A stretch of 64,000 bases of DNA from a virus. Shown here piece after piece: positions 55,521 to 55,978 of this stretch; position 1 is the first letter of the stretch, and the number at the start of each line of letters is the position of its first letter. The stretch covers positions 1,841 to 65,840 of IMG/VR virus record IMGVR_UViG_3300045988_180412, one strand, 5' to 3'. The notes beneath the pieces are model-generated. The model saw nothing but the letters and a program-made list of their open reading frames with translations. It was not told where the DNA came from and made no database searches. The position numbers and the translations under genes were made by a program.

Positions 55521-55978
55521 TGGCGGAGAGACCGAGAGAGGTCGTAAAATCCGCCAACAGGATTGGTTGCGAATAGCTTAGCCGATGCCGTCCGTGAGAA
55601 TAGCATCGGCTTAATGGGCATGGCAGACCGCAAGCATCGTTGCGAGTATTACTCGTGCGTCAAACAGCGGTGCTTGTCTGCGGTTCAACTCCACAGATGC
55701 CCACGCGAACACTCATATGCAGTAAGTTGATTAGACATCAGACATTAGACGCTTGGTGGTCTGCGAAGATAGCCAAGCATTATACGGAATAACAAAGCAC
55801 GGATAACGGATGCCCGTGCAAGGCTTGACGGCGACTTGACAGTGCGCGACCGAGGCCTTTTTAAGCTATCCCGAGTTCGATTCTCGGGTATTCCTCAAAG
55901 TGTTCATATAGGGTTTATGTATTTTCGGCATTACGGACGGGCTATTGCATGGTTAGTCCGTCCGTGTGCCGATTTTTT
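55521..55978 (+). ncRNA. about 460-nt candidate structured RNA with two tRNA-like domains
   Basis: Helices at 55521-55527/55550-55556 and a 9-bp helix at 55580-55588/55603-55611. tRNA-like domains at 55616-55703 and 55786-55895. Ends in a strong terminator. Confidence 0.4.
55925..55978 (+). terminator. rho-independent terminator
   Basis: 15-bp interrupted stem TCGGCA-T-TACGGACGG / CCGTCCGTG-TGCCGA followed by T6. Confidence 0.7.

Follow-up and report, generated by a model that had tools for sequence, protein, structure and literature searches.

The region 55521-55978 of the phage DNA analyzed here is very probably a genuine structured non-coding RNA. The DNA (hereafter the window) comprises 64,000 nt, i.e. 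positions 1,841 to 65,840 of the IMG/VR record IMGVR_UViG_3300045988_180412. As judged from its sequence, the element is one island of a putative multi-copy family of anticodon-less tRNA mimics in temperate phages of the Bacteroidales, and the phage holds at least seven such modules per genome. An earlier note had described the region as a single large closed RNA of about 460 nt with two embedded tRNA-like domains and a terminator. All the helices and domains that it listed are indeed there, and its reading of the region as structured, non-coding and ended by a real terminator agrees with the analyses below; the single closed fold does not. The two halves are joined by an AT-rich linker of variable length and without conservation, the presumed closing helix TGGCGGA/TCCGCCA is a local, dispensable hairpin, and units made of a hairpin and a tRNA-like module occur again, independently, at other places in the genome and in further phages.

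Architecture of the element

The element consists of an optional hairpin 0, hairpin H1, the tRNA-shaped module TLS2, a variable linker, hairpin H2, the tRNA-shaped module TLS3, a conserved spacer and a terminator (coordinates in Table 1). It thus holds two units, each a GNRA-capped hairpin followed 4-7 nt further on by a tRNA-shaped module, and an intrinsic terminator closes the string. The stems of hairpin 0 vary by clade while its purine-rich RAGAGA loop is retained, and the whole hairpin is absent in two clades (L012 and L023); it may be a terminator or stabilizer of the upstream gene for a 74-amino-acid protein. H1 has a conserved loop region, CCGUGAGAAU, and its 3' end lies 4 nt ahead of TLS2.

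TLS2 has an acceptor stem of 6 bp, GGGCAT/ATGCCC (55616-21 with 55697-702), followed by an invariant GGCAGACC that is able to form a mini D arm of two pairs. Its long arm of 9-13 bp covaries, and carries an inner hairpin and a conserved 3' bulge, GUCRAAC. The T-like arm that the earlier note had pointed out, CTGCGG-TTCAACT-CCACAG, is present with a 6-bp stem and the loop UUCAACU, albeit with one C.A mismatch in the window. On the 3' side of TLS2 stand the discriminator A55703 and then C. H2 has an invariant core, GUCUGYGAAGAUAG, and a covarying stem (G-C to A-U); its 3' end lies 7 nt ahead of TLS3. The latter begins with a 6-bp acceptor stem (55786-91 with 55889-94) and an AAAG linker, followed by a D-like stem of 6 bp, GCACGG/CCGTGC (55797-55819), with the loop AUAACGGAUGC. 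In the place of the anticodon arm is an invariant hairpin, GCRACUUGACAGURYGC, with a 4-nt loop and no anticodon loop. The variable region of 10 nt ends in GCURU, and the T arm CCCGAG-TTCGATT-CTCGGG combines a 6-bp stem with the loop UUCGAYU across clades. The bases 3' of TLS3 are U/A and then C. The string CUUGAC is common to H2 and to the TLS3 hairpin; as an alternative pairing it was rejected, the covariation not following in the window clade.

The terminator is a GC-rich hairpin with an immediate U-tract, conserved in relatives as would be expected of Rho-independent termination, and it ends 10 nt ahead of the ATG at 55989. A simple terminator scan missed it because its loop exceeds 8 nt. 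No convincing promoter of the Bacteroidetes type (TTTG / TAnnTTTG) could be read upstream of H1 or in the spacer 55903-55916; a sigma-70 promoter scan is uninformative for this host.

Folding, strand and coding capacity

On the plus strand, the segment 55500-55985 has a minimum free energy of -178.7 kcal/mol, compared with -143.5 +/- 6.2 in dinucleotide shuffles (z = -5.73; none of 100 as good), and TLS2 and TLS3 each yield a four-arm cloverleaf from the single sequence alone. The minus strand of the same segment is nearly as stable (z = -5.80), and the strand was therefore decided by comparing relatives. The plus-strand G-U pairs in GUGCGG/CCGUGC and GGAGAA/UUUUCC would be A-C mismatches on the opposite strand, so that the RNA is read from the plus strand, the same as the genes. 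These strand-specific pairs also rule out a minus-strand RNA or an element acting at the DNA level (attP, origin); the integrase gene is 4 kb off.

The region does not encode a protein. No open reading frame inside the element is conserved, the short ones differing in frame and position among clades, and the substitutions in its stems are compensatory. Downstream, protein conservation begins at ATG 55989 (homologues of 92-146 amino acids), just as the earlier note had supposed when it considered a predicted frame of 168 amino acids credible only from that codon.

Relatives and covariation

Relatives are few. The 117-amino-acid protein encoded directly downstream has just seven clusters of relatives among 5.8 billion proteins. 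The contigs of these relatives, together with one IMG/VR contig and a pattern scan of metagenomes, provided about 30 syntenic loci, amounting to 15 distinct versions of the element in 4-5 clades. In all of these contigs the element holds the same position, between a cro-like helix-turn-helix (HTH) gene and the exonuclease/RecT genes. Two DNA patterns of the element found nothing in the species-representative genomes of GTDB, blastn against the GenBank phages returned nothing homologous to the region, and the matches of its 17-18-mers in IMG/VR were mostly chance matches to coding DNA. The phage group that carries the element is narrow and uncultured.

In the 15 versions, 95.7% of the cells of H1 plus TLS2 are paired, with 11 double-changed pairs, and 98.6% of those of H2 plus TLS3, with six; in either case the covariation score was reached in none of 500 shuffles. 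When partners were shifted by 1-3 columns as a control, pairing fell to 30-53%. H1 by itself has five of ten pairs double-changed (95.8% of cells paired), and in the acceptor and T stems of TLS2 ten of 12 pairs are double-changed once a second phage group, described below, is added. Three pairs of the terminator stem are double-changed, and every clade retains a U-tract of 4-7.

Related modules in this genome and in other phages

The earlier note had regarded 55521-55978 as related to another structured element, at 54273-54852, and this is borne out by TLS1, a tRNA-shaped module at the 3' end of that element. TLS1 is a paralogue of TLS3: they share the stack of 6+6 bp, the AAAG linker, a D-loop of the form AUA..GGAU.GC (AUAGGAUAGC in TLS1) and CGCUGU ahead of the T stem. 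A covariance model of the TLS1-type modules (R1) gave weak matches to TLS3 (19.8 bits, E = 0.019; and 16.5 bits) and one to TLS2 (15.5 bits). MAFFT set the D stems of TLS1 and TLS3 in different registers, hence only a TLS1-type model, and no joint one, was built. The anticodon-position arm of TLS1 differs among clades. The 54273-54852 element starts directly after the stop codon of the HTH gene, has a core that is 90% identical in clades with diverged flanks, and carries near its 5' end a 23-nt insert specific to the window clade. It has no match in Rfam, and a supposed hammerhead core (CUGAUGAG...CGAAA) was rejected because its helices misfit and Rfam has no match.

Weak T-arm matches of model R1 led to a third non-coding island (58863-59258), which is situated between the Hc1-like gene and Ant, downstream of RecT, and comprises the three modules TLS-a, TLS-b and TLS-c. 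Its conservation extends to another clade (L009), the differences from the window being compensatory in part; Rfam found nothing in the island, and in 58400-59700 gave no tRNA match at E <= 10. It is followed by conserved non-coding sequence (59300-59560), near-identical in the L009 clade from about 59400, in which two terminator-like hairpins with T-runs (59466-59500 and 59520-59545) lie just upstream of Ant.

A scan for a T-loop with a perfect 12-layer acceptor/T stack found seven sites in the window versus 1.4 in shuffles: TLS1, TLS2, TLS3, TLS-c, the true tRNA-Met, a minimal acceptor/T-arm minihelix (the mini-module, 45596-45640), and a probable chance match at 19378-19543. The mini-module lies 12 nt after the stop of the reading frame 45345-45584 and 7 nt before a full-length pistol ribozyme (45648-45713; 63.4 bits), the next gene starting at 45745; mini-module and ribozyme may together form a unit for ribozyme-assisted processing.

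A second group of IMG/VR phages (group B: L031 and L033-L035) was found with a degenerate pattern. Ahead of a different exonuclease gene it carries a composite RNA (L031 3960-4464, L034 2480-2881, and also L035), in which an H1-like hairpin (GCUCGUGAGAGU) and a TLS2-type module come first and a TLS1-type module follows after about 250 nt of sequence that is structured, GC-rich and unrelated. The TLS1-type module of L034 has completely lost its anticodon-position arm. This arm, variable or deleted, is evidently dispensable in the TLS1 type, and selection therefore acts on the acceptor/T/D part. Finally, a tRNA-shaped module of 166 nt fits tightly between two open reading frames of Bacteroides LoVEphage (L038 11715-11880, equal to MW660583.1 29237-29402) and of BI-TP1 and PV4-TP1, cultured phages of Bacteroides intestinalis and Phocaeicola vulgatus, respectively. 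It has a 7+5 acceptor/T stack and a D arm, and an insert of about 100 nt replaces the anticodon arm; a hairpin precedes the module and an ACA trailer follows it. One record annotates it, in two joined pieces, as 'tRNA-His / tRNA-Undet', and the others leave it unannotated. A string common to TLS3 and this module (ACUUGACA) stands in different predicted contexts and is probably due to chance.

Several traits recur among these modules. As read by eye, acceptor and T stems add up to 12 layers with a variable split in TLS1, TLS2, TLS3, TLS-b, TLS-c, the mini-module and the LoVEphage module, TLS-a (9+4) being the exception. TLS2, TLS3, TLS-b, TLS-c and the LoVEphage module are each preceded, at a distance of 4-8 nt, by a hairpin. 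The modules also abut genes: TLS1 ends 27 nt before an ATG, TLS-a starts 14 nt after a stop, and the LoVEphage module is separated by 9 nt from the preceding stop and by 13 nt from the following ATG. Their 3' flanks read A-C-N (ACCA in L028), resembling that of the phage tRNA-Met, which has no encoded CCA and the 3' flank A-CAA.

The arrangement bears on whether the modules are parts of a larger ribonucleoprotein machine, in which modules, GNRA hairpins and the 54273-54852 RNA would assemble by tetraloop-receptor contacts or bind a phage protein. The GNRA tetraloops do have invariant flanks, the core of the neighbouring 54273-54852 element is kept where its flanks diverge, and the large phage-associated RNAs ROOL and GOLLD are reported to form homo-oligomeric complexes (PMC12286853). 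However, the variable linker and the reshuffling in group B, where TLS2-type and TLS1-type modules are joined around another middle domain, point to independent units; the element matches neither ROOL or GOLLD nor any other family in Rfam, and a receptor motif was not identified. We regard such a machine as improbable.

Resemblance to tRNAs and to known RNAs

The three modules TLS1, TLS2 and TLS3 share with tRNAs the acceptor/T stack, of 6+6 bp in each, a T-loop of the form UUCRANY (UUCGACU, UUCAACU and UUCGAUU, respectively, in the window), the pair G53-C61 and the GG of the D-loop (AUAGGAUAGC and AUAACGGAUGC). A canonical anticodon arm (5 bp, 7-nt loop, U33, purine 37) is absent, TLS3 having a 4-nt loop, TLS2 an unconserved inner loop of 5-6 nt, and TLS1 an arm that is variable or deleted. 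Since the modules have no anticodon loop, they are unable to decode. ARAGORN called no tRNA or tmRNA in the element, its sole call in the window being the tRNA-Met at 30512-30584. Rfam 15 at the gathering threshold reported just the pistol ribozyme and this tRNA-Met (30513-30584) in the window, and at E <= 10 gave no tRNA match and nothing meaningful in 53500-56500.

Could the modules nevertheless be unusual or degenerate real tRNA genes, i.e. decoding tRNAs with inserts or introns, or tRNA pseudogenes? The T-loop UUCGAYU, the pair G53-C61, the GG of the D-loop, the tRNA-like 3' flank and the deposited annotation of the LoVEphage homologue would suit such genes. Against them stand the blank results of ARAGORN and of the Rfam tRNA model and the missing 7-nt anticodon loop; moreover, bacterial group I introns are longer than these inserts of 30-100 nt, and compensatory changes contradict the decay expected of pseudogenes. 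This explanation is highly improbable.

Among known RNAs, the modules would seem to work most like processing signals of the t-element or mascRNA type, and like tRNA mimics generally: a tRNA-like fold with no apparent decoding capacity lies within a longer transcript, beside other RNAs or genes. The element belongs to none of the families tested, i.e. tRNA, tmRNA, YrlA, ROOL and GOLLD. Models of ROOL, GOLLD and other large phage RNAs had no hit at the gathering threshold in the window, nor at E <= 10 in 53500-56500, and RNase P RNA, group I/II introns, HEARO and T-box were likewise set aside, there being no Rfam match.

Mimicry of tRNAs is known from plant viruses, transfer-messenger RNA (tmRNA), Y RNAs, mascRNA and mitochondrial t-elements. 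In the cases of mascRNA/MALAT1 and MEN-beta, an RNase P cut forms the 3' end of the long RNA and frees a small CCA-tailed mimic. The likeness is that a tRNA-like module ends a long structured non-coding RNA, as TLS1 ends the 54273-54852 element. Unlike the phage modules, of which there are several, within an operon of genes, these are eukaryotic nuclear RNAs, and there is no sequence relation. A tmRNA combines a tRNA-like domain with a tag reading frame and pseudoknots. TLS2 resembles it in layout, with an acceptor stem and a T arm, a D region that is reduced and has no proper stem, and a long helix at the place of the anticodon arm; in contrast to tmRNA, the phage element has no mRNA-like frame, no pseudoknots and no G3-U70 alanine identity pair, and neither ARAGORN nor Rfam recognizes a tmRNA. 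The theta ribozymes of gut phages, which are similar to that of hepatitis delta virus, assist the processing of decoding or suppressor tRNAs. There, too, tRNA-shaped genes lie in phage operons, and here the mini-module precedes a pistol ribozyme, but the modules have no anticodons and just one is located beside a ribozyme. The C4 antisense RNA of phages P1 and P7 is released by RNase P from a longer transcript and controls an antirepressor gene. It is likewise a small RNA of the immunity/early region of temperate phages, and in the window the Ant gene (at 59646) follows the third island; however, the module loops have no conserved complementarity to downstream mRNAs. Duplex scans of the conserved loops against 52-64 kb gave noise only, and a C4-like antisense regulator was rejected; the D region of TLS2 matches the exonuclease mRNA over 10 nt at 56618, but this match is not shared by other clades.

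Plant mitochondrial t-elements are tRNA-like signals that set mRNA ends via RNase P and RNase Z (PMC1920247). Like the phage modules they have acceptor and T-arm features without a decoding function and are placed in polycistronic transcripts beside coding regions (PMC1920247). They differ in being organellar and in having neither GNRA hairpins nor a conserved extra hairpin at the anticodon position; processing of the phage modules is, for its part, predicted. YrlA is a non-coding RNA that mimics tRNA with a T-arm, a D-arm and an acceptor-like stem; some copies are phage-encoded, and that of M. smegmatis has a tRNA-like domain that is cleaved by RNase P and CCA-tailed (PMC4201824). It is found within 4 kb of the gene for Ro60 (TROVE), and its motif GNCGAAN0-1G overlaps Ro-associated 5' sequences (PMC4201824). 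YrlA, however, ends outside its tRNA-like domain, whereas the modules of the window have an open acceptor stem that carries the module ends. A scan of 30 proteins against Pfam or PHROGs, covering part of the window, showed no Ro60/TROVE domain; the YrlA motif was not seen, by eye, in its expected setting, and the element has no Y RNA match in Rfam.

A possible role in transcript processing

We tentatively propose that the modules are processing mimics, excised from the early transcript by the host's tRNA-maturation enzymes; this may well be so, though it falls somewhat short of probable. The modules copy the 'top half' of tRNA, i.e. an acceptor stem stacked on the T arm (12 layers), the T-loop and a D-region containing GG, which is what these enzymes would measure; RNase P recognizes the acceptor/T stack and cleaves tRNA-like domains (PMC4201824). 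RNase P would cut on the 5' side, at 55615/55616 and 55785/55786, while at A55703 and U55895 the 3' ends would be trimmed (by RNase Z or by 3' exonucleases) and extended by the CCA-adding enzyme, and the modules would thereby be excised from the polycistronic early transcript. The transcript would thus be punctuated, the upstream fragment closing with a stable hairpin (H1, H2) and a new 5' end arising on the downstream mRNA. Since the upstream RNA would be left with a stable hairpin at its end, excision would explain the placement of H1 and H2, though not the conservation of their loops. Stable anticodon-less tRNA mimics would then build up early in infection or induction, and once released could sequester a tRNA-binding host factor, as decoys or sponges, or have another role via the invariant TLS3 hairpin.

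Several observations weigh against this proposal. The acceptor stems are of 6 bp, not 7; the T stem of TLS2 has its C.A mismatch in the window; and the T-like loop of TLS2 reads UGCAACU in one clade and, in group B, GGCAGYA, and the latter is no T-loop. The invariant hairpin of TLS3 and the conserved loops of H1 and H2 are not accounted for by punctuation alone, and neither are three consecutive modules at 58.9-59.3 kb or the protection of an unconserved linker by H2. The covariation counts are supportive but statistically not decisive, because few lineages contribute (4-5 independent ones and one second group), and the processing of the modules we infer from their sequence. Finally, the terminator is conserved and lies 10 nt ahead of the next ATG, which suggests regulation, a role that would be superfluous to processing.

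The last point leads to the possibility that the RNA is a cis-acting regulatory leader controlling read-through of the 55926-55978 terminator into the delayed-early recombination genes, either as a put/nut-like antitermination RNA or as an attenuator sensing a tRNA-binding or tRNA-like cellular factor. Such sites, nut and put, are short conserved RNA hairpins upstream of terminators and act on RNA polymerase, nut requiring an N-like partner. A covarying terminator with its U-tract kept, so near the ATG that there is no room for a promoter, would fit this role. So would the location after the cro-like HTH gene and ahead of exonuclease/RecT, a place occupied by nut sites and terminators in lambdoid phages, the covarying stems and RAGAGA loop of hairpin 0, which recall boxB, and the terminator-like hairpins (59466-59545) that also follow the third island. 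On the other hand, TLS1 and the modules of group B and LoVEphage have no terminator after them, two clades lack hairpin 0, the terminator stem showed no alternative pairing of the antiterminator type, and the elements are far bigger than known put or nut sites; for a nut-type site, neither a boxA-like element nor an N-like protein was identified. Regulation of this kind is unlikely as the explanation of the element.

Titration could also be the primary function rather than a sequel. The mimics would then bind a factor that recognizes the acceptor/T half of tRNA, for example a defence toxin that modifies or cleaves acceptor ends, and so spare the host tRNAs during infection; this is a specific version of the last step of the processing proposal. 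The location among accessory genes in the early operon, the several diversified copies (at least seven per genome) and the retention of acceptor, T and D features with loss of the anticodon are in line with a decoy, and there is precedent in phage tRNAs that are reported to counter tRNA-targeting defences (PMC11555353). Yet neither a partner protein nor a defence system was identified, in an analysis that did not include the PADLOC library, and the invariant TLS3 hairpin and the GNRA hairpins would be left unexplained. We consider a primary decoy role rather unlikely.

A more speculative combination, to which we give only a small chance, is that temperate phages of the Bacteroidales harbor an undescribed gene class of anticodon-less tRNA mimics, several per genome and each with a GNRA hairpin, that would both commandeer RNase P, RNase Z and the CCA-adding enzyme for operon processing and neutralize host factors or defences that act at acceptor ends. 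Such neutralization, if true, would amount to counter-defence by RNA, of another kind than the replacement tRNAs already known from phages; as decoys, the modules would represent a novel type of RNA anti-defence. Should processing take place as proposed, tRNA punctuation would occur in bacteriophages as well and not in organelles alone, and phages would be able to produce small RNAs that are defined and stable but need no dedicated promoter or terminator. Rfam 15 has no family in which several covarying tRNA-shaped modules without anticodons lie in the early operon of a phage, and no description was found in the literature searched. The modules escape tRNA finders and become annotated as tiny hypothetical reading frames or as 'tRNA-Undet'; the related ones in the cultured phages BI-TP1 and PV4-TP1 make the question testable.

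Genomic setting

The window is part of the genome of a temperate phage of gut bacteria. Its left part holds structural genes on the minus strand, and after the integrase and a possible repressor begins a rightward early operon. The order of the latter is: two small genes (one HTH); the 54273-54852 RNA element; a 113-amino-acid beta-solenoid protein; a 74-amino-acid membrane protein; the element 55521-55978; the 117-amino-acid protein (ATG 55989); an 82-amino-acid protein; a PD-(D/E)XK exonuclease; RecT; Hc1-like; and Ant. The nearest named relatives of the RecT protein are in a lemur-gut virus (57% identity) and in the Bacteroides/Phocaeicola LoVEphage group (45%), and because of these relatives the host is almost certainly a member of the Bacteroidales.

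Table 1. Positions in the window of the element's parts, the related modules and selected genes.
Feature	Position	Strand	Remarks
Integrase	50129-51298	minus	
Possible repressor	53108-53662	minus	assigned from position only; no family match
HTH protein	54072-54272	plus	cro- or excisionase-like; rightward operon
TLS1	54738-54849	plus	tRNA-shaped module
Hairpin 0	55521-55556	plus	outer stem GGCGGA/TCCGCC, inner stem GACC/GGTC, loop GAGAGA
H1	55580-55611	plus	9-bp stem AGCCGATGC/GCATCGGCT plus inner stem; GUGA (GNRA) tetraloop
TLS2	55616-55703	plus	tRNA-shaped, 88 nt; folds alone as cloverleaf; covariation
Linker	55704-55750	plus	AT-rich; no sequence or length conservation across clades
H2	55751-55778	plus	7-bp stem GCTTGG(T)/(G)CCAAGC, 2x2 internal loop, UCU/AGA, GCGA (GYGA) tetraloop
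TLS3	55786-55895	plus	tRNA-shaped, 110 nt; own cloverleaf fold; covariation; paralogue of TLS1
Spacer	55903-55916	plus	TTCATAWAKRGTTT; between TLS3 and terminator; retained in all clades
Intrinsic terminator	55926-55978	plus	interrupted stem of about 15 bp, 13-17-nt loop, U-tract 55973-55978
Third island	58863-59258	plus	non-coding; three modules
TLS-a	58863-58926	plus	9+4 stack
H2-like hairpin	58977-59001	plus	core GUCUGUGAAGAUAG same as H2; precedes TLS-b
TLS-b	59008-59076	plus	
TLS-c	59157-59258	plus	preceded by H1-like hairpin (CGUGAGAAU in L009 clade)
Mini-module	45596-45640		CACCCG...GGCGTG TTCGACT CGCGCC CGGGGTG

At its right end, the early region is broken by a transposase gene (phrog_4646, E = 7.5e-82; 62862-63818, minus strand), and a serine recombinase/invertase gene (48917-49750) is located near the integrase. 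Between the integrase and the next minus-strand gene is a low-complexity, TG/CA-rich stretch (51542-52130; reading-frame translations such as THTYTRT and CVCACAC), which may be an attachment-site region or a simple repeat. A low-GC stretch, 41600-45300 (32-36% GC, with a strong negative GC skew), contains small minus-strand reading frames up to about 43280 and then a repeat-rich part poor in reading frames, with a 23-nt repeat at 43667, AACTA/15-mer repeats at 43902-43989 and five copies of CACAATC at 43998. It adjoins a gene for a D5-type primase-helicase and may be a replication origin.

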